This document shows positions 9,125 through 31,991 of a stretch of 64,000 nt of DNA, piece by piece. Where the stretch lies: positions 14,188-78,187 of the forward strand of contig CAUZEO010000001.1 in the NCBI GenBank assembly GCA_963578625.1. The letters run 5' to 3'. The notes under the pieces were generated by a model. It was not told the DNA's origin. It did not search any database and saw only the letters and a list, made by a program, of their open reading frames with translations. The position numbers were made by a program, and so were the translations under genes. This DNA comes from Kiritimatiellia bacterium. GTDB lineage: Bacteria; Verrucomicrobiota; Kiritimatiellia; SLOV01. The first letter of the stretch is position 1, and each line of letters starts with the position of its first letter.

Positions 9125-9844
9125 TCATTCGGGATATTCCGGGTCATGGCCTGTGATGACAGGAGCGTTCAGTCGGCGGATGCGTGCCAATCCCTGGAAA
9201 CAGGCCTGCAGGTCGCAGTTGTAACCCGGCGGCACGTCGTCGCGTAGATTCCGCGGGGTAAGCGCCACGTCACTGGTGAGAACCAACGGACCGGCGTCGG
9301 TCTGCACCATGACCGCCTGGGAACCCATGGTGTGACCGCCCAGCAGCAGCACGTTGATGCCGGGCAGGACTTCGGCATCGCCATCGAGGACGACCAGCCG
9401 GTCGGCACACCCTTTCAGGTGGGAATGCACGACGTCCACAAATGCGTGGGCCGCGAACCAGGGGTGGGGCGGATCAACGATCACATCCAACTCCCTGCGT
9501 TGGATGTACAGCCGCGCCTGGTCAAATGCCTTCACCACGGGCGAGCAGTGATCCCAATGCAGATGAGTGAAGATGATGTCGGTCACCTGGGAAGGCTCAA
9601 CCTGGGCTTGTTTGAGAAGGTTCAGCGGGCGGGTGGCTTCGGTCTGCCCCATATCGGGATTGAATGCCGCACCGTCGGCCTGGTCACAGCCGACGTCCAC
9701 CAGCACCGTTCGCTGGTTGTTCCGGATCAGCGTAAAGCGGTATTTCAAAGTGATGCTGCGCATCGGATCACCCAAAAAGTAGACGCGTGCTTCCGGTTCG
9801 ATGCTGCGTCCGAAAACCAGCGACTTGATCCGGTATGTGCTCAC
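9125..9844 (-). CDS. MBL-fold metallo-hydrolase
   Basis: HLHWDHCS metal-binding motif and a metallo-beta-lactamase-fold layout. The ORF runs to 10024, but that would overlap the upstream SDR; GTG at 9844 or a nearby start is more likely. Confidence 0.7.
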   Translation of the reverse strand: MSTYRIKSLVFGRSIEPEARVYFLGDPMRSITLKYRFTLIRNNQRTVLVDVGCDQADGAAFNPDMGQTEATRPLNLLKQAQVEPSQVTDIIFTHLHWDHCSPVVKAFDQARLYIQRRELDVIVDPPHPWFAAHAFVDVVHSHLKGCADRLVVLDGDAEVLPGINVLLLGGHTMGSQAVMVQTDAGPLVLTSDVALTPRNLRDDVPPGYNCDLQACFQGLARIRRLNAPVITGHDPEYPE

Positions 9845-9854
9845 CTCCGCAGCC

Positions 9855-10613
9855 TCACAGCATATACCCGCCATCCACAGGCACCAAAACGCCGGTGGTC
9901 CAGTCCGCGCCGCCGCCCGCCAGGTGAACCACGATGGCTGCAATATCTTCGGGCCGGCCCAATCGCCCCGCGGGCGTAGAGCGGATGATGCCGTCCCGGA
10001 CGCCGGGGCCGGCCAACTGCTCACGGTTGATCTCTGTTTCCACCGTGCCGGGAAGCACGGCGTTGACCTGAATGTTGTACGGCGCCAGGGCCACGGCCAG
10101 GGCCCGGGTCAGCATGTTCGCCGCCGCCTTGGAAGCACAATACACTACCTGTTGCGGGCTGGTCACCCCCTCGCCGGAAATGGACGTGATGTTGATGATC
10201 TTTCCGCTGCCGCGCGGCTTCATGTGCTCGGCCGCTGCCTGGGACAGCAGCAGCAGGGCGCGCGCGTGGAGATCAAAAGCAAGGTTCCATTGCTCCGGGG
10301 TCGATTCGAACACATCGGCAAGGATAGCGACACCCGCGTTGTTGACTAGAATATCCAGCGCCCCCAGCTGATCGATGGTCTGTTGGACGAGCCACGCGGC
10401 ACTCTCGACCCGGGTCAAATCGGCCTCCAGGAAAATGGCTCTGCGGTGCACCGCGCGAATTCGATCGGCGACCTGCTCTCCACGCTCACGGTCCTGGAAA
10501 CCGTGCACCGCGACATCCGAGCCGGCCGCGGCCAGTGCCCCGGCAATGGCCGCCCCGATGCCGCGCGAACTGCCCGTTACCAGGGCAACTTTGCCCTCGA
10601 GTTGCATGCTCAA
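9855..10613 (-). CDS. SDR family oxidoreductase
   Basis: VALVTGSSRGIGAAIA, NNAG, and YCASKAA catalytic Y-x3-K. Confidence 0.85.
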   Translation of the reverse strand: MSMQLEGKVALVTGSSRGIGAAIAGALAAAGSDVAVHGFQDRERGEQVADRIRAVHRRAIFLEADLTRVESAAWLVQQTIDQLGALDILVNNAGVAILADVFESTPEQWNLAFDLHARALLLLSQAAAEHMKPRGSGKIINITSISGEGVTSPQQVVYCASKAAANMLTRALAVALAPYNIQVNAVLPGTVETEINREQLAGPGVRDGIIRSTPAGRLGRPEDIAAIVVHLAGGGADWTTGVLVPVDGGYML

Positions 10614-11089
10614 GACTTTTTGGGTGTGGGATGAAAAACAACCGCATTGGCCTGGGGATCGAACTCACGCAGGAACGTGACCCCGTCGATCTTGCAGATG
10701 ATCGCGTCAGCCGTAGTGGTGACCGTGGCGCTTCCTTTGACCAGGTCCCCGCCATATAACCTTTCCTCGTCGACTACCGATACGTGAAGGTGGATTTCCA
10801 GCTGGCCGTCCTCGCGGGTGCAGACCATGCCCTGCCCGCCGGTGAAGGCAACCGGATGAGGCACTTCGATCTGCTTGGGTCCCACCCCGGACGGACTGCT
10901 TTTGTCCGCGACCGGAACGATCAGTTTCACGGCGTCGGCGCCGCCGATGAGAACCTCGATGGAACCGGCAGTGATTTCCTTTTCCCGGCATACTTCCAGC
11001 AGCCCTTCGGTGACATCTACCCCGGGCCGTAATCGCACCGCGATCAACTCTGATGTCCGTCCTTCTGCTACTAATGCATTCTGGTTCAT
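10610..11089 (-). CDS. PPC (DUF296) domain DNA-binding protein
   Basis: 159 aa with a PPC/DUF296-type beta-sandwich pattern (GVDVTEGLLEVCREKEITAGSIEVLIG...GDLVKGSATV). This is the only DNA-binding-type protein in the window. Confidence 0.6.
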   Translation of the reverse strand: MNQNALVAEGRTSELIAVRLRPGVDVTEGLLEVCREKEITAGSIEVLIGGADAVKLIVPVADKSSPSGVGPKQIEVPHPVAFTGGQGMVCTREDGQLEIHLHVSVVDEERLYGGDLVKGSATVTTTADAIICKIDGVTFLREFDPQANAVVFHPTPKKS

Positions 11090-12183
11090 CCTGTATTCTC
11101 CGTGGGCGGGGGGACGATCACCGCTTTGACACCCGCTTTACGGGCCAGGACATCCTTGATGCCCTGCTCGGCGTAGGCCAACTCATAGCGGTGCGTGACA
11201 AGTTGCTCCAGGGGGTATCGATTGCTTTCAAGCAAACGGATGGCCAGGTCAAAACCGTGCGCCTGACCCCAGCCGCCAATCACCGTTAATTCCTTTGCGG
11301 GAATCTCATCTTTGGTAATGGAGATCTGCGCATGTTCACTGTAACCGGCCAGAACAAATCGCCCGCGCCTTCGCAACATCTTAAGTCCCATCTCCACAGC
11401 GGCCGGCGCCCCCGACACCTCGATGGCAAGATCTACCCCCTCGCCGCCGGTGATCTGGCGAACCTGTTCCAATGGATCGCCATCTGCAGCGTTGATGACA
11501 TGGTCCGCGCCCAGGGTGTGCGCAAGATCCAGGCGTTCGTCATCACCGCCGGCTCCGATCAGGATCACTTCAGCCCCGGCTTCCTTGGCAACGATGGTAC
11601 TGCCGATTCCCTGCACCCCGGGACCGAAAATGGCAACCTTCTCCCCGGGTTGCACGTTCCCGCGTTGCTGCACCCAACGAACCGAGTTTGCCAGCACGGC
11701 GGTCAGGACCGCACGTTCCACCGGCACATCATTGGAAACACGGTGCGTGATCGAATTGGGATGAATGCATAGATACTGGCTGTAGGCGCCCCACAAATGC
11801 GGGGGATCGGCACAGGAAAACGAAACGCCATATTGCTTCTCATTCTCACAAAGGTTGTAGGCTCCACCGTGGCACATACGGCAGTACCCGCAGGGAATCA
11901 GCACCTCGGGCAAAAAACGGTCTCCCACCGACAGGCGGCGCCGGGATTGCGCGCGTTCGCCGATAGCCGCCACTTTCCCCACCATCTCGTGGCCCAGGAT
12001 CAGCGGATAGCGCGCGTGCGGATGCACGCCGCGGTAGGGCCCCCCGTCGCCACCGGCGCAGATGCCGCACATCTCCACTTCCATCAGCACCCAGTCCGGA
12101 TCGACCGAGGGAACTTCGAACTCCTGAACGCTTCCTTGCCCGGGTTGCTCCAATACGAATGCCTTGGAACTTCTAGCCCGCAT
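11086..12183 (-). CDS. MDR-family zinc-dependent alcohol dehydrogenase
   Basis: CGICAGGDG and GHEMVGKV zinc-ligand motifs and Rossmann motif GPGVQGIGS. Confidence 0.85.
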   Translation of the reverse strand: MRARSSKAFVLEQPGQGSVQEFEVPSVDPDWVLMEVEMCGICAGGDGGPYRGVHPHARYPLILGHEMVGKVAAIGERAQSRRRLSVGDRFLPEVLIPCGYCRMCHGGAYNLCENEKQYGVSFSCADPPHLWGAYSQYLCIHPNSITHRVSNDVPVERAVLTAVLANSVRWVQQRGNVQPGEKVAIFGPGVQGIGSTIVAKEAGAEVILIGAGGDDERLDLAHTLGADHVINAADGDPLEQVRQITGGEGVDLAIEVSGAPAAVEMGLKMLRRRGRFVLAGYSEHAQISITKDEIPAKELTVIGGWGQAHGFDLAIRLLESNRYPLEQLVTHRYELAYAEQGIKDVLARKAGVKAVIVPPPTENTG

Positions 12184-12204
12184 CTTTCACACTTTTATTT
12201 CCCA

Positions 12205-12873
12205 TTACTCCATCGCCACCACACGCACCGGAAACGCGTCCAATTTCTCTATCACCACGGGGAGCGCGGAGACAAAGACGCGGGTTTTCGATAACTGATC
12301 CAACCCGGTTAGATTCTCGATCAGCGGCACGCCGGCCCGAAAAATCGTCATGTGAGCTGGTCGTTCCGAATCCTTAGGATTCTCAATGCCCATCGCGTCA
12401 GCTCCCAGCAACTTCATCCCCTCATCCACCAACCATTGCAACGGCTCCGCCGTGAAATAGGGATTGTGCATGTACCGATCGTCGCCATAGTGCCGCGACC
12501 AGCCCAGGTTGGCGAAGACGATATCGCCTTTTCGAATTCCACCGTCCACCGCGGCGGCAGCGTCCTGCACCTGTTGCGCAGAGATCGCACTGCCCGCCGA
12601 CAACCCGCGCAGGTCCAGGATCACCGCTTCACCGACGAACGTATCAGGCGGAATGCTCGATAAGTCCAACCCGTCCTCCATGCAGTGCAAGGGGACTTCC
12701 ACGTGGGTACCGATGTGATTGACCATGTTGATGTAGTGCATGATATACCACTGACCCGGCCGCTGGATCACACCGGCGATCCGGTCAGAGTTAACCATCT
12801 CCACATCCATCCGGCGTTTTTCCTTGCCGGGGCTCAGCGGGTGCGAAAGGTCAATGATCCTTTGATATTGCAT
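12205..12873 (-). CDS. Cyclase-family protein (kynurenine-formamidase-like)
   Basis: HIGTHVEVPLH metal-binding motif typical of the putative cyclase family. Confidence 0.7.
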   Translation of the reverse strand: MQYQRIIDLSHPLSPGKEKRRMDVEMVNSDRIAGVIQRPGQWYIMHYINMVNHIGTHVEVPLHCMEDGLDLSSIPPDTFVGEAVILDLRGLSAGSAISAQQVQDAAAAVDGGIRKGDIVFANLGWSRHYGDDRYMHNPYFTAEPLQWLVDEGMKLLGADAMGIENPKDSERPAHMTIFRAGVPLIENLTGLDQLSKTRVFVSALPVVIEKLDAFPVRVVAME

Positions 12874-13093
12874 GCTACCTTTTAAGGTGTGATGTGAACC
12901 GTCACGGTCGCAGTCATGGGTCGGGCAGCAGTGTCCGTCAATTCAAAAGGATCGTTTACAACCTCAGTTCAAGGTCGACACCCAATAATTATATCGTTGA
13001 GGCTCGCAGAAAGACCACTGCGCAATCCTGAGAGGTAGGAGTTCCATTAGAACCTGTCTGTATTGGCTATTCATACCGGCGGTTGGGGTCCCG

Positions 13094-13623
13094 ATGAGCT
13101 TGGCCGATTCGCCGGTGCCGGAGATCCTGGCCGTGGATTTCGGTTACTGCCATCCGAGCCCGGAAGGCCTGGAGCTGTGGTGGTGTGAAGGCACGTACAA
13201 AGTGGGCCGTGAGAGGCCCCACGCCATTCGCAACCCACCTGGACGACGGCCATGGCCATCTCCCCGAATGCACATGCCTTCGGCAATGGAGACGGACTGC
13301 TGCTCTATCCGCCGTCCCGCGGCGTCCCGGACGATCCGATTATCGCGGGACCCATCAACTCCATTCGATGGGAAAACATCCGGGAAGGCTTGGAGGACAA
13401 GGAGTATTTCTGGCTGTTGGAACGCCAATTGGAACAGGTTCGGACACCGGCCCCTCTTGACGACAACGCCAAGGAGGCAATCCGCGAAGGAGAGGCGGCA
13501 CTGGACTCTGTCAACAGGCTCGTTCGGAGCTTGATCGACTACGAGACCGATCCCGGGAAACTCTACGCAGCACGCTCACTACTGGCGCATGCCATCGAAA
13601 ATCTTTCCTTCATCTCGAATTGA
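13094..13623 (+). pseudogene. Internal-deletion remnant of a DUF4091-like protein (paralog of 56324..58204)
   Basis: 13094..13230 encodes SPVPEILAVDFGY...LELWWCEGTYKVGRER, matching the N-terminus of the 626-aa protein at 56324..58204. 13252..13623 encodes GNGDGLLLYPPSRGVPDDPIIAGPINSIRWENIREGLEDKEYFW..., matching its last ~120 aa. About 450 internal codons are missing and the frame is broken. Confidence 0.6.
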
Positions 13624-13676
13624 TATTACCACTGTCGACGCCGTTAATGGCCTTGAATCCCACAGGAGATTTTACG

Positions 13677-14190
13677 TGAAACGATTTTTGCCCACAGGTC
13701 TGCTTATCGGATTCGCCTCTTCGGTTCTCGCCGCGAACCCGCTCGACGATGACCTGCGGTCGGTCGCCGACTTTGGCGCGGCAGGAGATGGGAAGGCGGA
13801 CGATACGAAAGCGCTCCAGGCGGCCATCGATGCCATTCCGGCCGCCGGCGGCATCGTCTTTCTCCCCGTCGGCATCTACCGAACGACCGCGCCGATCCGG
13901 CTGCGGCCGCAGTTGCGGTTGATGGGGGCCACGCGAAGATCATGGGGTTCCGCACCGGGATCCGGGACCGCGGCGCGGGCATGAATGTGATCCAGGGCAA
14001 CATGATCGACACGCAGGAGAAGGAAGGAATCGGGATCGACATGCATCCGGCGGAAGGGGCCCGTCCCAGCGTGGTCTCCGCCAACGTGATCGTGGCCGTC
14101 CGCGCCGGAATCCTCCGCCGCGAAAACGACCGCAACATTTATACCGGAAACGCCATGACGGACATGGAAGCTGGAAAGGGGCACCAATGA
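13677..14190 (+). pseudogene. Fragmented pectate-lyase-superfamily (right-handed beta-helix) gene
   Basis: GTG-start signal peptide VKRFLPTGLLIGFASSVLAANP, then DFGAAGDGKADDTKALQAAID. After a frameshift near 13940 come NVIQGNMI/SANVIVA beta-helix turns. Only ~170 codons remain of an expected 400+. Confidence 0.45.
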
Positions 14191-14262
14191 AATCCGGGAC
14201 CTCTGGACCGGCAACAGCGTCGCGTTCCTCATCGGCTCCAGCCTCGTGTGTATTCCTTGAAA

Positions 14263-14515
14263 TTAAGCAAACTTCAGAAAAGCTTCCTCGCACGTCAGCT
14301 CGTAAATCCGCACGTCCGTCGCCGGCAGGGCGGCGAGGAGCTTGACTCAATCACGGATCCAATGGTCTCCTGCACCACCTTCAAAAAATTCACAGGCGGA
14401 AACGGCCGGCCCCGGATGAAGTCGTTGCGGTAGCTCATGCCCCAGGGCAAGTCGTCGCGCTTGTGCCAAACATAGTCCGGCCGCTTGTCATTCGCCCAGA
14501 ATACCGGCGTGACGT
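14263..14515 (-). pseudogene. Remnant of a family-A gene
   Basis: 14263..14350 aligns to the 3' end of A1 (…CEDSFLKFA* region). 14351..14515 aligns to A1 7081..7250. About 220 nt between them, and everything upstream of them, is missing. Confidence 0.55.
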
Positions 14516-14523
14516 GGGGTTTA

Positions 14524-14557
14524 CTCCGCGTCTGTGGGCGCGGACTTCAGTCCGCAG
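14524..14557. repeat. 34-bp fragment of the 38941-type element terminus (inverted orientation)
   Basis: ccgcgtctgtgggcgcggacttcagtccgcagtg is the reverse complement of 38941..38974 with 2 mismatches. It abuts the family-A pseudogene breakpoint. Confidence 0.55.
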
Positions 14558-14666
14558 TGAGCAAAAAAAGAGGCGGGTCACAAACCCGTGCAGTAGTCGT
14601 GCCCGCCGACCCCGAAGGGTTGAGGCCCAGGAGCGCGATCATGGGGGAATGTTAACTTGCGAAGGT

Positions 14667-15347
14667 TCAGTATAGAAGCTCGTCCATGTTATCCGCAGTG
14701 TAGACTTGGTAGATGGCGTCGAATTCTTCGTACAGGTTCGCAAATTCTATGTCCGGATCATCAGGCGCATCCTGGCGTGTAAAAATGGCCATCTCTATTA
14801 CGCCTTGGCGCAGCAGCGCCGTAGGTCTGAACATCGGATCAAAGAATCGGGGAATAATAATCGGGGGGACAGACTCCGGTATGGAATTCAGTATCGCGAG
14901 ATCGGCCATGGGCGCACCCACGAGGGAAACGATTGCAGCAACATCCGGATTCGCTTCTCCAATCCTGATGTAATCGTCGACGGTCATTCTGCTCTCAGCC
15001 ACCATAGGCACGCCACGCTCTTGTGTGTCCCCCTGAAGCGTCTCCGACGCCACAATGTGTATGCCGGATTCCTTCAATGCCATTTCGAATACTTTGTCAT
15101 GCTGCACGAACGTATCCTCGACGGTTTTCTTGTCATGTATAAGCAGAACGACGCGCGCGCCTTGACCAAGATATTCGCCCGTCTTTTCTGCAGCGATGCG
15201 CCCGAACTCCACAAACCTGTCGTCGAACACCTTGGCGCTCTGTTGCGACCCCGATTTCAGGATCGAAATCAGACTGATGATGATGATCAGGATTGCGATG
15301 ACGACGACAATCGGGGCCTTCTCTGTACTCATCTTAGACCATGGCAT
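14667..15347 (-). CDS. Hypothetical membrane-anchored protein
   Basis: 226 aa with an N-terminal TM helix (IVVVIAILIIIISLISIL) and a short alpha/beta domain. Lower GC than its neighbours. Confidence 0.45.
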   Translation of the reverse strand: MPWSKMSTEKAPIVVVIAILIIIISLISILKSGSQQSAKVFDDRFVEFGRIAAEKTGEYLGQGARVVLLIHDKKTVEDTFVQHDKVFEMALKESGIHIVASETLQGDTQERGVPMVAESRMTVDDYIRIGEANPDVAAIVSLVGAPMADLAILNSIPESVPPIIIPRFFDPMFRPTALLRQGVIEMAIFTRQDAPDDPDIEFANLYEEFDAIYQVYTADNMDELLY

Positions 15348-15494
15348 TTTGATTCATCTCCATTTTGCTGTGTAGCCGCACCGTCCAAGTAACGCATAGC
15401 AGGGCCTCCAGGCGATAAGCAAGCACGTTCCACGCACCGTCAAGCTCATGGGGGCACGGTCTTTCCCTTTGCTGGTCGACCAGCTTATCCTCGG

Positions 15495-16049
15495 TTGGGT
15501 TATGGGCCGCGGCTTGTGACTGCTTGGACTCTTATGGCAGTGGCGATCGGATGGGCGCCGTTCGCGTACGGCGCAGGGAGCAATACGGTCGGGCGTATCT
15601 GCAGCACGACCAATGTTTCGCCCGGCTATACGCTGTTTTCCACCTTGCGGTACACCAACACCTATCTCGTCGACATGGAGGGAGATATTGTCCACTTGTG
15701 GCGCTCCGGTTTTCCCGCGGGCAACACGCATTACCTCCGCGAGAACGGCAACCTGGTGCGGGCCGCCGATCCGGGAAGCACCCATTTTGTCATCTGCGGC
15801 GATGCCGGCGCGGTGCAGGAGTTCGCCTGGGAGGGGAATTTGCTGTGGGAATTCCACTACAACGACGAGAACGTTCGCGCCCACCATGACATCGCGCTGC
15901 TGCCCAACAGCAACATCCTGATGATTGCCTGGGAACGGAAATCGAACGCAACAAGCCATCGGCACCCTGACTCATTTTACCGACACGGATCCCGTACGTG
16001 CCAACCAGAGCCCACCCTTCTACCAGGTCGTCGCGAGGCCGTGACCTGA
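15495..16049 (+). pseudogene. Truncated arylsulfotransferase (ASST)-like paralog
   Basis: The first ~155 aa (signal peptide, NTVGRICSTTNVSPGYTLF, HHDIALLPNSNIL) align with the intact downstream gene. After ERKSNA the sequence jumps to the 3' terminus of that gene (…THFTDTDP…) in another frame. This is an internal-deletion remnant. Confidence 0.6.
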
Positions 16050-16262
16050 GTATAAGCCTTTGTGGGCCGGGAGGGAGGGGTCTCCAAGAGAGCATCCATT
16101 GTGAAATTTGCAAGAGTCGTGTAGAATAAATGGATGATAGTATCCTGTCTTGGACCTTCCTGCCGGGACGAGGTGCCGCACAAGGTGCCGTGTCCGCTCC
16201 CATCTGGCCGTCGTCTTTCTTGTCACCCTTTCCGGAACAGGTGCCGGCGATTGTTGGCGTGG

Positions 16263-17819
16263 ATGGCTACGGCGACCGCCGCCGCACTCGCGCTGTCGAC
16301 GCCTGCCAACGGTGGCGGTGTCAACACCGTCGGCCTCATATCCAGTACGCCCGACGCCTCGCCCGGGTACACGCTATTCACTTGCCTTGTCTATAACGAT
16401 GCATACCTAGTCAATGTAGAAGGACAAATCGTTCACTCTTGGCGAAGCCCATACGCTTTTTCCTTGGCGCCGTATCTCAAGGAGAACGGCAACATGCTCA
16501 AATATTCCCTCCGGGCGCCCATGCAGGAATTTGACTGGGACGGAAATCTGCTCTGGGAGTATCACTATGAGAGTGCAAGCGTTACCATGCATCACGACAT
16601 CGCGATTCTCCCCAACGGCAACATCCTGGTGATCGCCGACGAGACAAAGTCAAACGCCGAGGCGATCGCGACAGGTCGAAGGCCCATTTTTTCAAGTGCC
16701 GTCGATGCACTGCATGTTGTCGAATTGATGCCGGTCGGTTCGAACAGTGCAACCATCGTCTGGGAATGGCACATCTGGGATCACCTGATTCAGGACTTCG
16801 ATACGAACCAGGCGAACTTCGGCGTGGTGGCGGATCATCCCGAACGGGTCGACATCAACTTCGGTGAGCTCAATTATCAAGATTGGCTCCATGCCAATTC
16901 CATTGATTATAACGAATCATACGATCAAATCATCTTGAGTATTCGTACCTTCAGCGAGTTCTGGGTTATCGATCACAGCACGACCACGGCGGAGGCCGCA
17001 GGACACACCGGAGGCAACAGCGGGAAGGGAGGCGACCTGCTGTACCGGTGGGGAAATCCCCTGGCGTATGACCGCGGGGCACAGGCGGATCAAAAGTTGT
17101 TTAAACAGCATGACGCGCAATGGATCCCGCAGGGGAAGCCCGGCGCCGGAAATATTCTGGTGTTTAATAACGGCGCCGGCCGCCCGGGTGGCCACAGCTC
17201 AGTCGAAGAAATCGCCCCCCCGGTAGACGGGAACGGGTGGTACACCAACCCGCTGCCGGGCGCCGCGTTTGGACCGGCAGCGCCGGTGTGGAGCTACACC
17301 GCCACCCCGCCGGGGAGCCTGTTCAGTTTTACTTTATCAGGAGCCGATCGCCAACCCAACGGGAATACCCTCATCTGCGATGGGGATGCGGGAACCTTTC
17401 TGGAAGTGACCATGAACGGCGAGCTGGTGTGGCATTATGTCAGTCCAGTCAACGGGTCGGGACCGATGCCCCAGGGCTCGCATCTCGTGGAGAGTAGCAC
17501 GTTCAGAGCCGATCGCTATCCGCCGGACTTTCCGGCATTTGCAGGGCGGGATCTTACCCCGAACGGTACCCTGGAATGGGACGCTTCCGACGCATTCCAG
17601 TTTCAACAGGTCGGCCGAACGGCATCCGAAGTGAATTTGTCCTGGGCAAGTCTACCGGAGTCGACGTATCAGGTACAATACGCGCTGTCGCTGGAAACCC
17701 CCGGGTGGACGACCATCTCCACGCAGACCGCCATCGGCACACGGACTCATTTCACGGACACCGATCCCCTTCGCATCAACCAGGCCGTGTCCTGCTATAG
17801 GGTGCTCGAATCACCATGA
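16263..17819 (+). CDS. Arylsulfotransferase (ASST)-like beta-propeller protein with C-terminal Fn3-like domain
   Basis: Signal peptide MATATAAALALSTPANG. HHDIAILPNGNIL and later blocks are typical of the ASST family. The ORF begins at 16134, but the Met at 16263 precedes the signal peptide. Confidence 0.65.
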   Translation: MATATAAALALSTPANGGGVNTVGLISSTPDASPGYTLFTCLVYNDAYLVNVEGQIVHSWRSPYAFSLAPYLKENGNMLKYSLRAPMQEFDWDGNLLWEYHYESASVTMHHDIAILPNGNILVIADETKSNAEAIATGRRPIFSSAVDALHVVELMPVGSNSATIVWEWHIWDHLIQDFDTNQANFGVVADHPERVDINFGELNYQDWLHANSIDYNESYDQIILSIRTFSEFWVIDHSTTTAEAAGHTGGNSGKGGDLLYRWGNPLAYDRGAQADQKLFKQHDAQWIPQGKPGAGNILVFNNGAGRPGGHSSVEEIAPPVDGNGWYTNPLPGAAFGPAAPVWSYTATPPGSLFSFTLSGADRQPNGNTLICDGDAGTFLEVTMNGELVWHYVSPVNGSGPMPQGSHLVESSTFRADRYPPDFPAFAGRDLTPNGTLEWDASDAFQFQQVGRTASEVNLSWASLPESTYQVQYALSLETPGWTTISTQTAIGTRTHFTDTDPLRINQAVSCYRVLESP

Positions 17820-17837
17820 CCCGCCTTGGTTCACGAC

Positions 17838-17872
17838 AAAAAGCGGGGCGGGTCTCTTGGACCCGCCCCGCT
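17838..17872. terminator. Bidirectional GC-rich hairpin terminator between convergent genes
   Basis: gcggggcgggtc-tcttgg-acccgccccgc. On the minus strand it is followed by TTTTTG, 25 nt after the LamG stop. Confidence 0.6.
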
Positions 17873-17899
17873 TGAAGTTCAATTTCTGTGTAAGGTTAC

Positions 17900-18793
17900 T
17901 TACCGTCGGCGACGAATCGCGAGGAGCAATCCGCCAAGGCCTAACAGGGCCAGGGTCCCGGGTTCGGGAATACTCATGTAAGTCTGAACCTCGCTCTGAG
18001 TCAGGAGACCGTCGAAGACCCTCAGTTCATCAATTTTGCCGAGGAATCCGCGGCCGGCGCCGGTGTGGGCATCGTGTCCACCGACTACGAAGTTTCCGCC
18101 CCAGTCTTGATCTATCCCTCCAAATCCCTGGGTGTCCTCCAGTACACCATTCACGTAGAGATGTTTTTCGTCCGAATCACTGTCCCACGTGGCTGCAACG
18201 TGAACCCATTCCTCCACGGCAAGTAGTCCGGATCCGCGGGCGGAGGCGACGTCACCGGCGGCTCTCAATTCAACACGCATGCCCGTATAGTTATGCTGAT
18301 TGTGCACGACGTAATTGAACGGATCGTTCCCCTTGACGACAATCCAGTTGGCATTATCCGGGTTGTTGAGGGCGTTATCGTTACCGTATCCAGTACCGTC
18401 ACCGTCGGTACCCCCGTCTTGCCTCATCCAGAACATGATTGATCCGCGGTTAGCCAACGCAAACGACGCATCATCTCCGAAGTACACGACGTCGCCAGTC
18501 GGACCTATAGGCATCCGGTCTCTCCGGGTCCCATGCACGGGAGGATCGTCGGCGATGCCGTCACCTCGTACGCCGTGGAACTGGAGGCCGCCCCCGCTAT
18601 GTCCTGTGGTCCAGTCCGAGTCGCTCTTCATGAACGAGAACTCCCCATGCTGAGGATTGGTGGCCACCTGGTCGAAGACGTTCGTTCCCGAGCCTTCGTT
18701 GAAGTTGTAATAGTGAGTCATGGTCACGCCACCCGCCTGGGCTATTCCTGCCGCGGCGAGAAACATAACGGTTACCGTTAGCATTTTCTTCAT
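17900..18793 (-). CDS. LamG-like (concanavalin A-like) secreted protein with PEP-CTERM anchor
   Basis: Signal peptide, LamG-like core shared with two upstream paralogs, and C-terminal IPEPGTLALLGLGGLLLAIRRRR (PEP motif, TM helix, Arg cluster). Confidence 0.85.
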   Translation of the reverse strand: MKKMLTVTVMFLAAAGIAQAGGVTMTHYYNFNEGSGTNVFDQVATNPQHGEFSFMKSDSDWTTGHSGGGLQFHGVRGDGIADDPPVHGTRRDRMPIGPTGDVVYFGDDASFALANRGSIMFWMRQDGGTDGDGTGYGNDNALNNPDNANWIVVKGNDPFNYVVHNQHNYTGMRVELRAAGDVASARGSGLLAVEEWVHVAATWDSDSDEKHLYVNGVLEDTQGFGGIDQDWGGNFVVGGHDAHTGAGRGFLGKIDELRVFDGLLTQSEVQTYMSIPEPGTLALLGLGGLLLAIRRRR

Positions 18794-19306
18794 TTTGCCA
18801 GTCTCTCCTTACTTTTTGCTACTTTTCGCCTGTTGGCGACAAACCACGCCTTAACTTCCTTCTCCGCACTACTTTACTACTTGCTTCACCATCTTCTGAC
18901 TCCCCCTAGTCCTTATCTATAATTTCACGACGGTAACCTGTCCGAATTTCCCTGTTCCGTCAAGACCTTATCTTTTTTTTTTTGCAACCAGTCATCTTGG
19001 CACTTATTAACAGCCAAGCTGTCAGCAACCTGTCAATAACCTCTCAGAAATGCCCCTTTTTCGTTAAAATCTTATCGTCTTTTTTTACTATCAGGGGGTT
19101 GAGGGGGGCAGGGAGCGAAAAAATCCTTGACTCATCGCAGGGTGTTTGGCCTAACGGAAGCTTCAAAACCGCCCTGTAGTAGAGGGTATCCTCGCCCGGA
19201 CTGGGGGGGGGCCTTTCGTTCAAGAAAGGCCCTGATCATCATAATGCCGGAATTTCCGTGAATATTTTGATTTCCGCTAAATGGAAGTGCATACACGGCC
19301 GCGTGT

Positions 19307-19433
19307 AGCTTGGTCCTCCAAGCCCGAGCCGGGGCAAGCGATGGTCATGATGTGGCGAATGCCTTGAGGCTTGCTCCAGCATTCGCTTTCCATGATCTCC
19401 TCCTGCCCGGGGTCGGGCTTGGAAACCCAACCT
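19307..19433. mobile_element. MITE-like element copy 1
   Basis: cttggtcctccaagcccgagcc … ggggtcgggcttggaaacccaacctac. Same termini and related interior (ttccatgatctcctcctgc vs ttctatgatcaccccttgc) as copy 2. Lies in the intergenic region between LamG genes. Confidence 0.55.
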
Positions 19434-19520
19434 ACTTTTCGCGAATGGGATAGCTTCTAGTATTGAAGCCACTTCATCGGGCCGTCGTCGCAAAGAACGC
19501 TTGAATTACTCGCAATAAAC

Positions 19521-19553
19521 AAAACGGGGCAGGTCCTGGAGGACCCGCCCCGC
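19521..19553 (-). terminator. Rho-independent terminator downstream of LamG paralog 2
   Basis: cggggcaggtcc...ggacccgcccc hairpin, followed on the minus strand by TTTTGTTTATT. Confidence 0.55.
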
Positions 19554-19600
19554 TCGAAGTTGCATTCCTTGTTCGTTAGCTATCGGCGGCGAATCGCCAA

Positions 19601-20686
19601 CTACTCCTCCAGAATCTGATACTGCGCCGTGTTGTCGAACCCGTTCGGATCGTAGAGACGCTGGGTCCCGCCATCGCCGACGATGCTGGCCCCGGCATCC
19701 AGGAACACGACGCTGGTGCTGTTGGAAACTTGCAGCACGTAATCTCTGCCGACCTCGCTATCGAACTGTAAAAACGTCGTGGGGCCCACCGTGACGGTTT
19801 CGAACCCGGGCCCCGGCAGGGGGATCGAGGCCATTTCAGCCTGCACGGCGGCATTATCCAGAAGCTCGTCGAAGATCTTCAGTTCATCAATCGCGCCGAG
19901 AAATCCGCGGCCGGTGCCTGTGTGGCTGTCATGCCCGCCGAGCACAAAGGGTCCCCCCTGGTCGTTCAATCCGCTCCAGGAATCGGCACTGTTGCCCACT
20001 AAGTCACCGTCGACCCACAGCCGTACCGAATTCGATGCCGAATTCCAGCCGACCACAAAATGCACCCATGTTCCTACAGGCAGCGGAGAAGGCGCTGCTA
20101 TGTTCGGGCCACCATTCAATTCGATGCGACCGTGGTATGCTGCATTCGGCTGATTGTGAAGGAGATACGAGAACGGATCCGAACCATGAACTACGAGCCA
20201 GTTGGAGTTATCCGGGTTGTTGATGGCTCCGGCTTCACCGTATGCACTACCGTCACCGTCGGGACCCGGGTCCTGCCGCATCCAGAACATGATGGTGCCG
20301 GTGCTGGTCAACGCGAAGGATGCATCGCTACCGAACCGGACCACGTCGTTCTTCGGACCCTGAGGCTCCCGGTCAAGCCGGGTCGGATGAACCTGTGGGT
20401 CATCGAGGATGCCGTCGCCCCGCACGCCGTTGAACTGCAGGGCGGTTCCGCCCCCGATCAGCGGCGAGTCCACCCAGTCGTTGGTCGGGTTCTTCCCTGC
20501 GCCGAACGTGCCGTGCTGCGGATTAGTGATCACCTGGTCGAACACGTTCGTTCCGGCCCCTTCGTCGAAGTTGTAGTAGTGAATCATGGCCGCCTGAGAG
20601 CCGGCCGCGCACAGGAAGCACGCCGCAGCCGCGGCGGCAATCACTGTGGCTGTCCATCTGTTCGTTTTCATCTGAATTTTCTTCAT
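19601..20686 (-). CDS. LamG-like secreted protein (paralog 2, no PEP-CTERM)
   Basis: Signal peptide and LamG core homologous to 17900..18793 (HYYNFDEG.GTNVFDQV.TNPQHG, GVRGDGI.DDP.VH.TR.DR), plus an extra C-terminal beta-sandwich. Confidence 0.8.
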   Translation of the reverse strand: MKKIQMKTNRWTATVIAAAAAACFLCAAGSQAAMIHYYNFDEGAGTNVFDQVITNPQHGTFGAGKNPTNDWVDSPLIGGGTALQFNGVRGDGILDDPQVHPTRLDREPQGPKNDVVRFGSDASFALTSTGTIMFWMRQDPGPDGDGSAYGEAGAINNPDNSNWLVVHGSDPFSYLLHNQPNAAYHGRIELNGGPNIAAPSPLPVGTWVHFVVGWNSASNSVRLWVDGDLVGNSADSWSGLNDQGGPFVLGGHDSHTGTGRGFLGAIDELKIFDELLDNAAVQAEMASIPLPGPGFETVTVGPTTFLQFDSEVGRDYVLQVSNSTSVVFLDAGASIVGDGGTQRLYDPNGFDNTAQYQILEE

Positions 20687-20708
20687 GGTTTCTCCACGTG
20701 ATTTTGAA

Positions 20709-21893
20709 TCAGTCCAAAATTTCGAATTGGTAGCTGCCGTTGGGGTCCCCGTCGGGGTCGTAGAAGTTGACGGGATCGCCTGTCCCCTTCACAAGAGGTC
20801 CTACTGGGATAAAGTTCCCCGCCACCAGGTCGGTGGCTCGCTTCAGCTGGTAGTTTTTGTTGGCCTTGGTGCTCAGGCTCATGATGACGGCACCGGTCAC
20901 CGGATCGGGGACCCAGGGAATCGTCCCCTCGGGCGCGGCCGGCACGATCGCCATTTCGGCCTGAACTTCCTGCGCGGTCAGGGCGGTATCGAAGATCTTG
21001 AGTTCATCAACGCCGCCAAGGCAACCACGTCCCGAACCCGTCTGGCCCGGCTGCCCGCCGACATACAAAGAGCCGGTCGCAGTGAGTAGACCGTTGAAAC
21101 CGTCGTTTACGGCGACTTCCACGCCGTCGACGTAGAGGAAGGATTCCCCGTCGCCGTAATACCCGCCGGTTTTCGTCCAGGTCGTGGCGATGTGGACCCA
21201 TTCCCCAGTCGGCAGCGGACTCGGTGACCTCAAATCGATCTCACCCATTTTTCCCTCGAACCGAAGACCCAGTCCTTGCGAAGGCTGATGGTGGAAAACG
21301 TATGGATCTATGCCGACGGGTCCCTTGTAAATAATCCAGTTCGCATTGTCCGGGTTGTTGATGGCGCCGTCGCCACCGTACGGGCTGCTGCCGTCGCCGT
21401 CGGGACCCGGATCCTGGCGGTACCACATCATGATTGTTCCCTCGTTCGTAAGATCGAAGGAGGCGTCCGGCCCGAATTGCACGTAAGCATTCTGCGGGCC
21501 CAGCGGCACCCGGTCACGCCGGGTTATATGAACGGGTGGGCTGTCTTTGATGCCGTCGCCCCGCACGCCAGGGAACTGAAGCGCGTTCCCCCCGTTCACC
21601 AGAGGGGAGGAGATCCAGGCGCTGGCTGGATCCAGTTGGGCTCCGAATGTCCCGTCCTGAGAATTGGTCTTTACCTCGTCCTTGGTCTGAGTACCGCCCC
21701 CCTCGTCGAACCGGTAGTAATGAACCAATGCTGCCGGACCGCTGACCGCGGCCACCAGCATCCACAGCCCCGCAACCGGAACCATGTAGCGCGTTGCTTT
21801 ACTTCTCATCCTGGTCTCCTTTCGCTGGATAAAACGACCGGATGAACAATCCGTACATCCGGCGATTGAATGCGACTTCGTCGGCCTCTCCAT
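20709..21893 (-). CDS. LamG-like secreted protein (paralog 3)
   Basis: Signal peptide, the same LamG core, and a C-terminal beta-sandwich extension. Confidence 0.8.
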   Translation of the reverse strand: MERPTKSHSIAGCTDCSSGRFIQRKETRMRSKATRYMVPVAGLWMLVAAVSGPAALVHYYRFDEGGGTQTKDEVKTNSQDGTFGAQLDPASAWISSPLVNGGNALQFPGVRGDGIKDSPPVHITRRDRVPLGPQNAYVQFGPDASFDLTNEGTIMMWYRQDPGPDGDGSSPYGGDGAINNPDNANWIIYKGPVGIDPYVFHHQPSQGLGLRFEGKMGEIDLRSPSPLPTGEWVHIATTWTKTGGYYGDGESFLYVDGVEVAVNDGFNGLLTATGSLYVGGQPGQTGSGRGCLGGVDELKIFDTALTAQEVQAEMAIVPAAPEGTIPWVPDPVTGAVIMSLSTKANKNYQLKRATDLVAGNFIPVGPLVKGTGDPVNFYDPDGDPNGSYQFEILD

Positions 21894-22121
21894 GGGCCAG
21901 AGGGCCCGACCTCGCGCAATCTAGGAAAGATACCTCCCCCGCAAACGGGCTGGCAACAAAAAAATCATTGAATATCGGCATAACTACGTTTAGCATTCCA
22001 TTGCTTAACGGAGCGGTGATCCGACCCGAAAATCGGGTCGCTTCCGTCGATGATACATCACGGATGCGTGACTACGGCAGGAGATCCGGAAATGCGTTTT
22101 TGCAAGAAAGTAAAGCAAAAC

Positions 22122-22949
22122 ATGGAAAGTTCCTCACGTAACTCAGCCCGAAGGTTCATTGAGTCGCTGGCTTGCCGGCCGAAGTCTTCTGTGCCCGCGA
22201 CTGCGTCGGTGGGGTGGAGGCAAGCCCGGTCAGGATTCACGCTCATCGAACTGTTGGTGGTCATCGCTATCATCGCGGTGTTGTCGGCGATTCTGCTCCC
22301 GGCCCTCCGGGAAGCGCGACTGCGTGCCTATACCGCATCCTGCCTGCCGAATATTCGAGGCGGGCACCTGGTCCAGACCCAGTACGCGCTCGATAACGGA
22401 GGCGAATATGCGGAGGCGCCTGAGCATTTGCCGGATTACTACCGGGAGGGAGGCCCATACCAGGGGAGCCGCCGGCAGAAGTTCGAGGATTATGTTTCGA
22501 ATTACAAGATCCTCTCCTGCCCCTATCACAACTATACGATGCGGAGATTTCGGGCCGATCGGCATTGGCGCCGGGAGTGGGCCACCAGCGGCCCCGCCGA
22601 CACCTACAATTTCTGCCACATGAACTACATGTGGATGGGCAACTACGTGAAGGGAATCTCTGCCTACTATAACGGGGAGCTCCCGTGGCCGAAGTCCATG
22701 GATGAAAGCACTCCGGACCGCGTGCTGGTCACCCACCGGATCAACCTCATCAAGGGATACGGAGCCCAATTCGAAAGCCACAACAATGCATTGGAAGTGC
22801 TGGGCGTCCGGCGGATCCAGCAGCCGGAAAAGGAGCTGGCCGGTTTGAAGGAGAACCCCGTTGGATATGCCGATGGTCATGCCCTCGTCATCCCGGCCGA
22901 AGACATCGTGCGGCGCGTAAAAACTGGGTCGGGAACTCTGTTTTATTGA
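22122..22949 (+). CDS. Prepilin-type N-terminal cleavage/methylation domain (DUF1559-like) protein
   Basis: [25 protein letters not shown] pseudopilin N-terminus, C-terminal …[13 protein letters not shown]. The ORF starts at 22050; the Met at 22122 gives a shorter leader. Confidence 0.75.
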
Positions 22950-22958
22950 GGTTGTGGA

Positions 22959-23729
22959 ATGGACGACGAGGCACGAGACTATGACAGTCTTGAAATCCGA
23001 GATTCGAAATCAGCCTTCACGTTGATTGAGCTTCTGGTGGTCATCGCTATCATCGCGGTGCTGTCGGCGATTCTGCTCCCGGCCCTCAGGGAAGCGCGAC
23101 TGCGTGCCTACACCGCATCCTGCCTGCCGAATATTCGGGGCGGGCACCTGGTCCAGACCCAGTACGCGCTCGATAACGGAGGCGAATATGCAGAGGCGCC
23201 TGAGCATTTACCGGATTATTTCCGGGAGGGAGGCTCATACCAGGGGAGCCGCCGGCAGAAGTTCGAGGATTATGTTTCGAATTACAAGATCCTCTCCTGC
23301 CCCTATCACAACTATTCGATGCGAAAATTTCGGGCCGATCGGCATTGGCGCCGGGAGTGGACCACCAGCGGCCCCGCCAACACCTACAATTTCTGCCACA
23401 TGAACTACATGTGGATGGGCAACTACACGGCGGGAATCTCTGCCTACTATAACGGGGAGCTCCCGTGGCCGAAGTCCATGGATGAAAGCACTCCGGACCG
23501 CGTGCTGGTCACCCACCGGATCAACCTCATCAAGGGATACGGAGCCCAACTGCTCAGCCACAACAATGCGCTCGACGTGCTGGGCATCCGGCGTCTCCAG
23601 CAGCCGGAAATGGAACTGGGCGGGTTGAAAGAAAACCCGGTCGGATATGCTGATGGCCACGCACTGGTCATTCAGGCCGAAGACATCGTACGGCGTGTGA
23701 ACAGCGGCAGGGGAGTCCTGTTTTACTGA
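22959..23729 (+). CDS. Prepilin-type N-terminal (DUF1559-like) protein, tandem paralog
   Basis: [25 protein letters not shown]. More than 90% nucleotide identity to the upstream gene across ~700 nt. Confidence 0.75.
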   Translation: MDDEARDYDSLEIRDSKSAFTLIELLVVIAIIAVLSAILLPALREARLRAYTASCLPNIRGGHLVQTQYALDNGGEYAEAPEHLPDYFREGGSYQGSRRQKFEDYVSNYKILSCPYHNYSMRKFRADRHWRREWTTSGPANTYNFCHMNYMWMGNYTAGISAYYNGELPWPKSMDESTPDRVLVTHRINLIKGYGAQLLSHNNALDVLGIRRLQQPEMELGGLKENPVGYADGHALVIQAEDIVRRVNSGRGVLFY

Positions 23730-23889
23730 GGTAGTGGATTCCGGGTTCAGCTGGGGTTGAGCGCTCCCCCCTTAGCCTGCCGTGACAATCGGGCTCCAGC
23801 TATCGGCGAAAATCCTCTGCGTTGCGGGGGGGCGGGGCACTGTTCAATGCCTACTGAGAGGCGTCCTCAAGGCTCCGAAGAGTCTTGGT

Positions 23890-24200
23890 AGGGGCGTTCT
23901 GTCTATTTTGAACCGGGGAACATACCGGGACGCGATAGAAACGCTGCTGACATGTGACGGGTTTCCTGAACCCTTTCTTCGCGGATCGAAAGCCGCCGAC
24001 AACCGTTGGGCATCCGTTTATCACCAGGAGATTCTCCGAGCCGATGTCCGGGATGCATTTGCCGTGAGGGATCTGGACTCTCTGACGCTGCTTTACGACC
24101 TGCTTGTGCCGCGGGTCGGGTCCCCGCTGTCCGTGACTCAACTCCCAATCCTACTCGTAACCGCAAATCGATTCGAGGTTCGGTTACAGTGCGATCAGGA
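23890..24200 (+). pseudogene. Fragment of a COG1373/DUF4143-type AAA+ ATPase
   Basis: …ETLLTCDGFPEPFLRG…YHQEILRADVRDAFAVRDLDSLTLLYDLLVPRVGSPLSVTQL… matches the DUF4143 region. There is no AAA N-domain, and the surrounding ORF (23782..24294) is largely unlike protein. Confidence 0.4.
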
Positions 24201-24315
24201 GGTGCCTGTGAGGAGTCTTGGGGTTCCGGTTGTCGTCCGCCACACGGGTCACACACCCGTGCTGCGAAAAAACCGCCCCGTCCTTCCTCCTTGATTCCAC
24301 CTGCACAATGATGCG

Positions 24316-25134: not shown

Positions 25135-25428
25135 CCCGGCCGCTCCGGTAGTTGATTGGAAACCAAGCCCCGTCCGGTCCCAGCAATCAGTCTGGATTGT
25201 TAAAACACCGTCTAAACCCCACCGGGTTTATCCCGGTGGAGACGTGATCCTGTGCTACAATTCGGTGAATACCAAACACGAGCCCGAAAAGGAGCAATGA
25301 ATGAGTCTGGCTCTATTCTCGCTCCAACCGTGCATTATTGTTTCGTCCTTGGTTTCATCAGTGCAAGATCTAGTCCATGAGGGAACCCGCCGTCGCATTG
25401 GACTAGTACGAAATACAATTATTCCGCA

Positions 25429-27687: not shown

Positions 27688-27705
27688 CCAAGGAAAGGAT
27701 ACACG

Positions 27706-31984: not shown

Positions 31985-31991
31985 ATCGTCT

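Follow-up and report, generated by a model that had tools for sequence, protein, structure and literature searches.

Why should several neighbouring genes, within about 3 kb, keep their two ends and lack the middle? A first-pass annotation of a 64-kb stretch of DNA (the window; all coordinates refer to it unless a contig is named) described three independent remnants, each joining the N- and C-terminal portions of a gene with an intact paralogue elsewhere in the window, and read them as the product of a repeated, end-retaining process and not of random decay. The relics, their junctions and the same locus in other strains were therefore analysed in turn.

Relic inventory and clustering

Four gene relics (R1–R4) were located at 13049–16049, surrounding one intact gene of 226 aa; R1–R3 were matched by tblastn and blastn against the intact in-window paralogues. 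They belong to a GH123/DUF4091 gene (R1), a family-A gene (R2), an ASST gene (R3) and a gene of the pectate-lyase fold (R4). The matches for R1, R2 and R3 bear out the earlier description of remnants with intact paralogues in the window. Joined N- and C-terminal ends were found for the GH123 and ASST genes, as described; the family-A relic is instead a 3' fragment, and the third join is that of the pectate-lyase-fold gene. Homology to the full-length family is present for every relic (R1, E 2e-48 and 3e-24; R2, 4e-32 and 6e-11; R3, 7e-40 and 9e-9; R4, PF12708, E 1e-14). The missing DNA amounts to 421 codons (R1), 588 codons plus 193 bp (R2), 1067 bp (R3) and 256 bp (R4), and the reading frame switches at or shortly past each of the four junctions. 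Central protein parts are absent, among them the mapped catalytic domains of GH123 and ASST, and several ORFs of 82–184 aa among the fragments had been called hypothetical proteins by gene callers. Judged by sequence, the four relics are bacterial pseudogenes, that is, remnants of once-functional protein-coding genes.

Self-comparison of the whole window gave only one gene fragment besides this cluster, a lactamase_B piece at 38748–38935, so the clustering is real. An Rfam search of 12700–16300 returned zero matches; repeats within the region were limited to short matches at chance level, and the four junctions shared no motif. In a promoter and terminator scan of the region, sites were no commoner than in shuffled sequence; the two noteworthy sites were a promoter-like site near the ASST gene and a terminator past the 226-aa gene. 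No intact orthologue of R1–R4 was present in the public data searched, so we infer the original intact locus rather than see it. A scan of a genome collection with the neighbouring ADH as query had a top match of 32% identity and yielded neither a related genome nor the orthologous locus.

The GH123 relic

56324–58204, minus strand: intact GH123 paralogue (626-aa ORF; PF13320, formerly DUF4091, E 1.8e-28, plus N-terminal domains), the reference for R1
13049–13216, plus strand: R1 N arm, aa 15–70 of the paralogue (tblastn 71% identity, E 3e-24)
13216–13623, plus strand: R1 C arm, aa 491–624 plus stop (13216–13617 matched; tblastn 60% identity, E 2e-48)
13213–13237, plus strand: R1 junction zone, in which ~10 nt (13213–13222) could be assigned to neither arm

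The N arm aligns by blastn at 84% with 58126–57999; its translation shows no start codon at the position corresponding to that of the paralogue. The gap of ~420 aa (1263 bp) preserves the frame of the paralogue: AIRNP continues in the frame of the N arm, and the shift comes with a 2-bp indel at 13236–13237, past the in-frame loss. Gene callers had annotated the C arm as a 123-aa 'hypothetical protein' (P0001, 13252–13623). The closest intact relative is only 60–71% identical, too diverged for the junction to be placed or its microhomology to be judged. The joined arms, used as a homology query, retrieved their own sequence and matches that were either distant or incomplete, and no intact orthologue.

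The pectate-lyase-fold relic

13676–13947, plus strand: R4 N arm, signal peptide and first beta-helix turns (PF12708, E 1.2e-14; aligned to L037/P0014)
13938–14190, plus strand: R4 C arm, C-terminal portion (~80 aa) of the beta-helix protein, read in another frame than the N arm
13938–13947, plus strand: R4 junction, GATCATGGGG, the sole kept copy of a 10-nt direct repeat

The gene at 13676–14190 had been noted as fragmented. It is a relic, and in fact joins N- and C-terminal ends, falling 256 bp short of its closest homologue (P0014, on contig L037), to which it is ~84% identical in amino acids (64 of 75 in the C arm). In L037, which serves as a proxy for the pre-deletion sequence at 84% aa identity and is not the true ancestor, GATCATGGGG lies at 1241–1250 and GATCCTGGGG at 1497–1506 of the contig, 256 bp apart and identical at nine of ten positions (P = 3e-5 for a match of at least 9/10 at fixed register).

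The family-A relic, the hairpin repeat and the intact gene

6795–9002, minus strand: intact family-A paralogue nearest to R2 (735 aa), the reference for R2
36320–38524, minus strand: further intact family-A paralogue in the window
25429–27687, plus strand: further intact family-A paralogue in the window
14343–14513, minus strand: R2 5' arm, family-A aa 589–645 (88% aa identity, E 4e-32; blastn 85%)
14266–14343, minus strand: R2 3' arm, family-A aa 710–735 (92% aa identity to ORF 6795–9002)
14337–14344, minus strand: R2 junction of a 193-bp internal deletion, with possible microhomology of ~3–4 nt at most (TTG/CTTG), the paralogues being too diverged to decide
14524–14561, no strand assigned: short hairpin repeat with core GCGGACTTCAGTCCGC, ~10 bp or less from the truncated end of R2
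14667–15347, minus strand: intact 226-aa gene of an uncharacterised family, with a predicted N-terminal hydrophobic (membrane) segment
14574–14588, minus strand: hairpin with a trailing T-run, resembling a terminator, downstream of the 226-aa gene

Homology of R2 ends at 14513, the first 588 codons are gone, and no similarity to the family-A N terminus was found anywhere in the region. As aligned, R2 is a 3' fragment, truncated on its 5' side and lacking 193 bp internally, and not a join of the two ends; it may be a partial duplicate that was never a full gene at this site. An inverted copy of the hairpin repeat adjoins the truncated lactamase_B fragment (38935|38942), and none lies at any junction of N- and C-terminal arms.

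The 226-aa gene had no match in Pfam, and a word-based homology search with its ORF gave nearly no word-sharing relatives. An exhaustive HMMER search gave 163 relatives, mostly of ~200–270 aa and aligned over almost the whole length, so the ORF is taken as an intact member of a family of roughly 220 aa.

The ASST relic

16134–17819, plus strand: intact ASST paralogue (PF05935, E 7e-23), the reference for R3
15495–15950, plus strand: R3 N arm, ASST aa 38–175 (15510–15950 matched; E 7e-40)
15946–16044, plus strand: R3 C arm, ASST aa 530–561 plus stop (15946–16041 matched; E 9e-9), frame-shifted relative to the N arm
15946–15950, plus strand: R3 junction, ACGCA, present where the N arm ends (codons AAC GCA) and in sister-strain sequence just upstream of the kept C arm (ACG CAA)

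The R3 arms are separated by a gap of 354 aa and stand in different frames. The relic does lie upstream of an intact ASST gene, as stated earlier, but this gene is an old paralogue and not its intact copy, the protein identity being 49% for the N arm and 62% for the C arm. The N arm is 73% identical in amino acids to a related ASST gene on contig L041, which carries its own, different deletion of roughly 125 aa and a frameshift. Sister strains lack the R3 N arm and have in its place the tail of a PEP-CTERM gene and a longer ASST C arm; the undeleted right side of R3 was taken from such a strain and is a proxy, not the true ancestor.

Authenticity of the junctions

An assembly artefact, in which the junctions are paralogue collapses or chimeras produced by a short-read metagenome assembler, would suit three observations: the k141 name of the metagenome contig that forms the window, the many paralogues in the region, and a contig of another sample that switches between two 188-bp repeats. 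Identical junctions are, however, present at 99.98–100% identity in contigs of other samples from three assembly sources (ENA, JGI and Logan): R1, R4 and R2 in L007 (Logan); R4, R2 and R3 in L008 (ENA); R3 in L011 (JGI); and R1 in L003 and L004. The R1 fragment was found in 14 contigs, and the R1, R4 and R2 junctions also occur in sister strains diverged by 0.7–2.4%. Furthermore, the arms are only ~50–88% identical to the in-window paralogues and so could not have been built from paralogue reads. Mis-assembly is judged very unlikely on these comparisons, and next to no weight is given to the artefact.

Timing, strain comparison and selection

Comparison with related strains, proposed in the first-pass annotation, was carried out: the R1, R4 and R2 junctions are common to the sister strains (L033–L036 and L121; divergence about 0.7%, range 0.7–2.4%), and the R3 junction is confined to the window type. 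From the shared junctions and the different ASST relic of the sisters it follows that the deletions did not coincide in time and that they continue. A single concerted event is ruled out, since the junction ages differ; processed or spliced gene copies are ruled out by the intact paralogues, which have no introns.

Between strains, SNPs number one to seven per relic (R2 ~2.8%, R1 ~0.2%, neighbouring genes 0–0.6%), figures that rest on very few sites. Arms and their relatives give dN/dS of 0.05–0.31 at dS 0.6–1.0, and no arm of any relic contains a stop codon; together these observations indicate genes that were once functional, diverged under selection and were inactivated recently.

In another sample, the 29.5-kb segment carrying the relics may be circular or tandemly duplicated via the two 188-bp repeats, or may be a graph cycle; the hybrid repeat there joins 38747 to 9475.

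The stop-free arms, the fragments that are ORFs of 82–184 aa called hypothetical proteins, and the few R1 SNPs between strains could point to fragments kept for a role, be it as small secreted proteins or as silent cassettes that donate sequence to the intact paralogues by gene conversion. Such a role is scarcely credible: the R3 N arm is dispensable, being gone in sister strains, frames are broken at or just past all junctions, R1 is without a start codon at the paralogous position, and R2 evolves fast (~2.8% between strains against 0–0.6% in neighbouring genes). The loss of central regions, including the GH123 and ASST catalytic domains, is the opposite of what known donor cassettes display, and ~50–88% identity to the paralogues is low for gene conversion. 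Silent donor cassettes were also rejected as a candidate in their own right, the relics having no central parts and no high-identity tract with intact paralogues (best, 85% over 170 nt). Cassettes for antigenic variation retain the variable centre of the gene, which is recombined into an expression site. Unlike these, the present relics have no centre, derive from enzymes of four unrelated families and bear no trace of conversion. They do resemble the msp2 'functional pseudogenes' of Anaplasma, described in PMC2789410 as silent cassettes for antigenic variation, in that partial gene copies are clustered and an intact expressed paralogue lies elsewhere.

The relics might alternatively have been partial copies from the outset, left where segmental duplications end or where pieces of genes were inserted illegitimately, without decay of full genes in situ. 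One clear case exists in the window, the lactamase_B fragment at the edge of the 6795–9474/36320–38935 duplication, and R2 is 5'-truncated and ends close to the same hairpin repeat. A duplication border, however, gives one truncated end and no N- and C-terminal joins, and an internal deletion is required anyway for R1, R3 and R4; moreover, sister strains keep more of the ASST C arm, which amounts to progressive loss in situ. The arms have diverged from the paralogues as much as the intact paralogues have from each other (dS 0.6–1.0) and are thus not recent copies of in-window genes. An origin as partial copies is decidedly unlikely.

Microhomology and the deletion process

Inspection of the junctions for microhomology, which had also been suggested, gave a positive result at R4 (GATCATGGGG/GATCCTGGGG, 9 of 10 nt) and R3 (ACGCA, 5 nt), with no more than 3–4 nt at R2. 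Microhomology of at least 5 nt is thus found at two of the three resolvable junctions (two of all four); by chance alone, this would be expected for two of three with a probability of ~6e-5.

The deletions range from 193 to ~1800 bp, with no motif common to their junctions, and two of those at the locus removed a gene end (the 5' truncation of the family-A gene and the loss of the ASST N arm in sister strains). When deletions of the observed sizes were placed at random in the inferred ancestral tract, the joint probability that all fell within single genes was ~0.32.

A dedicated or recurrent recombination that removes gene interiors and spares both ends, through lineage-specific template switching, end joining or an activity linked to the hairpin repeat, would account for three end-joining relics inside 3 kb, for microhomology at two junctions, for the hairpin repeat at ~10 bp or less from both truncation points that do not retain ends (14513 and 38935), and for a further ASST gene with an internal deletion (L041). 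It is strongly disfavoured by the different ages of the events, their spread of sizes and lack of a common junction motif, the two deletions that took a gene end, the random-placement null that is not rejected (P ~0.32) and the position of the hairpin repeat away from every join of N- and C-terminal arms. The ages, the lost gene ends and the null also speak against the earlier reading of a repeated end-retaining process in place of random decay.

Ordinary deletional decay is the likely explanation for 13049–16049. The decaying tract is probably a disused glycan locus, with four mutually unrelated carbohydrate-active genes: one for a GH123 hydrolase, one for a small protein of the pectate-lyase fold, one for a putative glycosidase of family A and one for a second arylsulfotransferase. 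Recently inactivated, these genes are being reduced by independent deletions of 0.19–1.8 kb, at least two of them between short direct repeats of 5–10 nt. The footprint matches that of RecA-independent short-homology deletion, by replication slippage or microhomology-mediated end joining; slippage, A-EJ and Ku/LigD NHEJ are not separable by their sequence footprints. Both ends would have been kept in three relics because the deletions were shorter than the genes; their survival may also reflect outer edges of the tract that adjoin promoters and genes still needed (the cyclase operon, the 226-aa gene and the intact ASST gene). The clustering would most likely be due to one glycan-utilisation locus that lost its use, leaving its genes free to decay jointly.

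Comparison with known systems

Replication slipped misalignment deletes DNA between short direct repeats independently of RecA. As in such deletions and in alternative end joining (A-EJ; Chayot et al. 2010, as cited in PMC6054270), one repeat copy is kept and the intervening DNA is lost at R4 (10-nt repeat, 256 bp) and R3 (5 nt, 1067 bp); the ~10 unassigned nt at the R1 junction would fit filler or later mutation.

In bacterial pseudogenes, 43% of deletions lay between microhomologies of 2–11 nt (Danneels et al. 2018, PMC6054270), and a deletional bias has been described (Kuo & Ochman 2009, PMC2817411; 2010, PMC2916853). Microhomology-flanked deletion is therefore a documented mode of bacterial pseudogene decay (PMC6054270), and no special process is supported here. 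The relics share with these cases (PMC2817411, PMC2916853, PMC6054270) that they are disrupted protein-gene relics losing DNA and framed by functional genes. They differ in that the deletions are large (0.19–1.8 kb), whereas published decay spectra consist mostly of small indels, and in that four relics are adjacent, one of them polymorphic among co-occurring strains. The published deletion spectra found come largely from host-restricted bacteria, symbionts and pathogens, whereas the bacterium here is environmental and uncultured, with a large number of paralogous glycan genes. Its PEP-CTERM, prepilin-type N_methyl and LamG proteins, together with numerous glycosidase-like paralogues, would suit a glycan degrader of the PVC type.

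In maize, 'fractionation' after duplication proceeds by short deletions flanked by direct repeats (PMC2893956); there, as here, redundant or unneeded genes of a paralogue-rich genome are lost piecemeal by short deletions. Unlike in this eukaryote, where the loss follows whole-genome duplication, the relics here are old, diverged paralogues (dS 0.6–1.0).

Implications

A lineage with unusually active short-homology recombination, continually pruning and reshuffling expanded glycan-gene paralogues, is unlikely; it could be proposed because deletion states are polymorphic between co-occurring strains, because the hairpin repeat lies ~10 bp or less from both gene-truncation borders, and because the 29.5-kb segment may form a circle or tandem duplication via the 188-bp repeats in another sample. 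If it were true, the disposal of unneeded genes by a free-living bacterium could be measured at this locus, as in a natural time series.

Read as ordinary deletional decay, the locus does not reveal a new mechanism, and its value lies chiefly in annotation: public 'hypothetical proteins' of 123, 102, 82 and 171 aa are pieces of four dead enzymes. It also provides a clean case, assembled several times over, of an environmental bacterium with microhomology-flanked deletions on the kilobase scale, one of which is caught in progress by strain polymorphism.

Gene content of the relic cluster

The window DNA belongs to a metagenome contig (ENA ERZ27247711, k141_2080754) and abounds in glycan-related paralogous genes. 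Three family-A proteins (about 735 aa each; weak GH42M-like domain) are accompanied by several DUF6259 genes and by the GH123, PhyH, LamG/PEP-CTERM and prepilin-type N_methyl families. Between a minus-strand cyclase operon, which ends at 12873, and an intact arylsulfotransferase (ASST) gene (16134..17819), translated and nucleotide self-comparison showed a 3.1 kb stretch to be composed of gene relics, with a 226-aa gene as its sole long ORF:

13049-13617, plus strand: R1, aligning first to aa 15-70 and next to aa 491-624 of intact GH123 gene 56324..58204 (formerly DUF4091)
13676-14190, plus strand: R4, small pectate-lyase-fold protein, N-terminal PF12708 part and C-terminal beta-helix part
14266-14513, minus strand: R2, matching the family-A paralogues at aa 589-645 and 710-735
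14667..15347, minus strand: intact 226-aa ORF, member of an uncharacterised family
15495-16044, plus strand: R3, matching the neighbouring ASST at aa 38-175 and 530-561

In the 64 kb self-comparison the only gene fragment outside the cluster was a lactamase_B piece (38748-38935). Public gene calls (JGI, NCBI and ENA-derived sets) treat pseudogene pieces as separate 'hypothetical proteins' (13252-13623, 13676-13984, 13942-14190 and 15534-16049; listed lengths 123, 102, 82 and 171 aa), so that protein databases hold pseudogene fragments as if they were genes.

A search of 1.8 billion representatives gave the 226-aa protein 163 relatives at E<=1e-3, most about 200-270 aa long and most aligned across nearly the whole length. 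An N-terminal hydrophobic (membrane) segment was predicted, no Pfam match was obtained for the protein, and a terminator-like hairpin lies 3' of the gene. The called product reaches 242 aa in sister strains, owing to the deletion of 2 bp at 15347-15348.

Verification of the assembly

Mis-assembly of the relic cluster, raised by the first-pass annotation, is very unlikely. Independent contigs were collected via exact-protein look-ups, and the junctions recur in ENA, JGI and Logan contigs at 99.98-100% identity. L007 (Logan, SRR9039920; window 15472..9378; 100%) carries the R1, R4 and R2 junctions, L008 (ENA, ERZ27247690; window 18736..13597; 99.98%) those of R4, R2 and R3, L011 (JGI, 3300031802; window 15346..26049; 100%) that of R3, and L003 and L004 (ENA; Logan; window about 11540-13330; 100%) that of R1; the R1 C-arm ORF is present on 14 contigs. 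The relic arms share no more than 50-88% identity with the paralogues in the window and therefore could not be assembled from paralogue reads.

Deletion junctions

The first-pass annotation had described GH123, family-A and ASST remnants that each join both gene ends, with a merely fragmented pectate-lyase-fold gene among them. This holds for R1 and R3, which match the N- and C-side segments listed. R2, however, is a 3' fragment that has lost its 5' part and, internally, a further 193 bp; translated comparison found no N-terminal family-A piece anywhere in the region. R4 does lie among the remnants but is more than fragmented: against its closest homologue, P0014 (251 aa, 84% identical, encoded at locus L037), it is a precise join of N- and C-terminal parts lacking 256 bp. 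Nor is the adjacent ASST the intact copy of R3; their identity is only 49-62%, so R3 represents an old paralogue.

L037 carries GATCATGGGG (1241-1250) and the near-copy GATCCTGGGG (1497-1506) at a spacing of 256 bp, and R4 has a single GATCATGGGG (13938-13947) directly followed by C-arm sequence. The R4 junction thus reads as the textbook footprint of a short-direct-repeat deletion; the deletion causes a frame shift, and the beta-helix part sits in another frame from the N-terminal part. The R3 N arm ends in ...TCG AAC GCA, and sister strains, which retain sequence upstream of the kept C arm, read ...TCC ACG CAA CAA GCC; the common ACGCA places the junction at 15946-15950. A looser 17-nt similarity exists between the two R3 breakpoints in the intact ASST paralogue. 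For R2 the possible overlap, inferred from paralogues, is at most 3-4 nt (TTG/CTTG). At R1 about 10 nt (13213-13222) are assignable to neither arm; its loss of 1263 bp is in frame relative to the paralogue, as AIRNP still reads in the N-arm frame, and the frame is broken by a separate 2-bp indel at 13236-13237.

In random sequence the chance of junction microhomology of at least 5 nt is 0.0046, and that of two such among three resolvable junctions about 6e-5. The microhomology-mediated deletion proposed earlier is supported for two junctions, R4 and R3. Replication slippage between short direct repeats leaves the same footprint as alternative end joining; it suits the two events of 193 and 256 bp more plausibly than those exceeding 1 kb. 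A systematic study found 43% of bacterial pseudogene deletions between 2-11-nt microhomologies and ascribed microhomology-flanked deletions to alternative end joining (PMC6054270).

Sister populations and age of the relics

Contigs of a sister population (L033/L034, JGI; L035/L036, Logan; L121, ENA) are 99.3% identical to the window over 6584-15484 and 97.6% over 15946-18882. In this comparison of related strains, likewise suggested by the first-pass annotation, the R1, R4 and R2 junctions were exactly alike, with no indels in 12874-15346, and the R3 site differed: window 15485-15945 (ASST N arm) is substituted by 285 bp (L033-L036, L121). These comprise the 3' tail of a PEP-CTERM gene (L033 9780-9908, minus strand; ...VPEPAAVRLLGLGLLIVTPRHRRAP*; 42-aa relic) and, convergent with it, a longer ASST C arm (aa about 476-561). 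This structural polymorphism separates populations whose samples bear neighbouring ENA analysis accessions (ERZ272477xx). Since the sister C arm is longer, the common ancestor must have carried more of this ASST gene; different parts of it were lost in the two populations, and the R3 events are younger than those of R1, R2 and R4.

A related ASST gene in another genomic context (L041 371-1689, Ga0310121_10049519), 73% identical in aa sequence to the R3 N arm, carries a frameshift and an internal deletion of roughly 125 aa after '...AEAVAAGR'. It is a pseudogene of the R3 gene lineage with an independent and different deletion. The equivalent of the intact ASST (window 16134-17819) is called at 441 aa in some sister contigs and at 518-522 aa in others (L035, L121, L136); the 441-aa call may reflect a start-site difference or a lesion.

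Against their closest intact relatives the arms gave dN/dS of 0.05-0.31 and dS of 0.6-1.0 (Nei-Gojobori), and no arm contains a stop codon. The four genes thus parted from their paralogues while purifying selection was acting, and their inactivation is recent. They are neither ancient junk nor recent duplicates.

Other repeats and rearrangements

A 29,602-bp contig from another sample (ena:ERZ27247695:k141_2466773; L002, L134) has an exact 141-bp end-to-start overlap. Its circumference of 29,461 bp is made up of window 9475..38747 and a single hybrid copy of a 188-bp lactamase_B direct repeat (window 9287-9474 and 38748-38935). One side of this hybrid is B-type, the other A-type, and it has two private SNPs. 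In that sample the relic-bearing segment is therefore circular, tandemly duplicated or else a graph cycle supported by reads. The 29,461 bp showed no gene for an integrase or for replication.

The segmental duplication 6795-9474/36320-38935 (family-A gene and upstream region) is about 77% identical overall, and its last 188 bp (5'-truncated lactamase_B fragment) 96%, which suggests recent gene conversion or exchange limited to this piece. A short hairpin repeat (core GCGGA(C/A)T(T/G)(C/A)A(G/T)TCCGC; conserved flanks CCGCGTCTGTGG...CAGTG) occurs three times in the window (0.04 expected):

14524-14561: copy
38942-38981: inverted copy
39134-39149: copy

Copies lie about 10 bp or less from the truncated ends of the family-A relic and the lactamase_B fragment; the repeat may be a rearrangement-breakpoint marker or a REP/MITE-like element. 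Tandem prepilin-type (N_methyl) genes (22230-22958 and 23010-23738) are 91% identical across 729 nt, far above the 65-77% identity of the window's other paralogue pairs. Between 19311-19435 (spacer downstream of LamG gene 19601..20686) and 43094-43217 (3' end region of ORF 43161..45233) there is a similarity of 73% over 125 nt; a further small relic or a 3' element common to the two sites may explain it.

Retention of gene ends

Six deletion events can be deduced at the locus: four were intragenic (R1, R4, the 193-bp deletion of R2 and the window type of R3) and the other two, the 5' truncation of R2 and the ASST loss of the sister type, each took away one end of a gene. When the observed deletion sizes were placed randomly in the inferred ancestral GH123/pectate-lyase/family-A tract, the probabilities of falling wholly inside one gene were 0.42, 0.86 and 0.89 (jointly 0.32). 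With this value and two end-removing events, the non-random, end-retaining process postulated by the first-pass annotation was not borne out; the pattern does not require a special end-sparing mechanism. At its outer edges the tract borders on upstream regions, those of the cyclase operon, the 226-aa gene and ASST, and R3 lies alone between the last two of these; longer-reaching deletions are, we infer, likely selected against.

That bacteria show a deletional bias and purge their pseudogenes is well established (PMC2817411, PMC2916853). The relic cluster is the same in kind, but differs in scale (kilobase deletions), in its setting in an environmental glycan degrader and in the polymorphic state caught here. 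As pseudogene clusters go it is ordinary, and it probably represents a glycan-utilisation locus that fell out of use and is decaying in situ.
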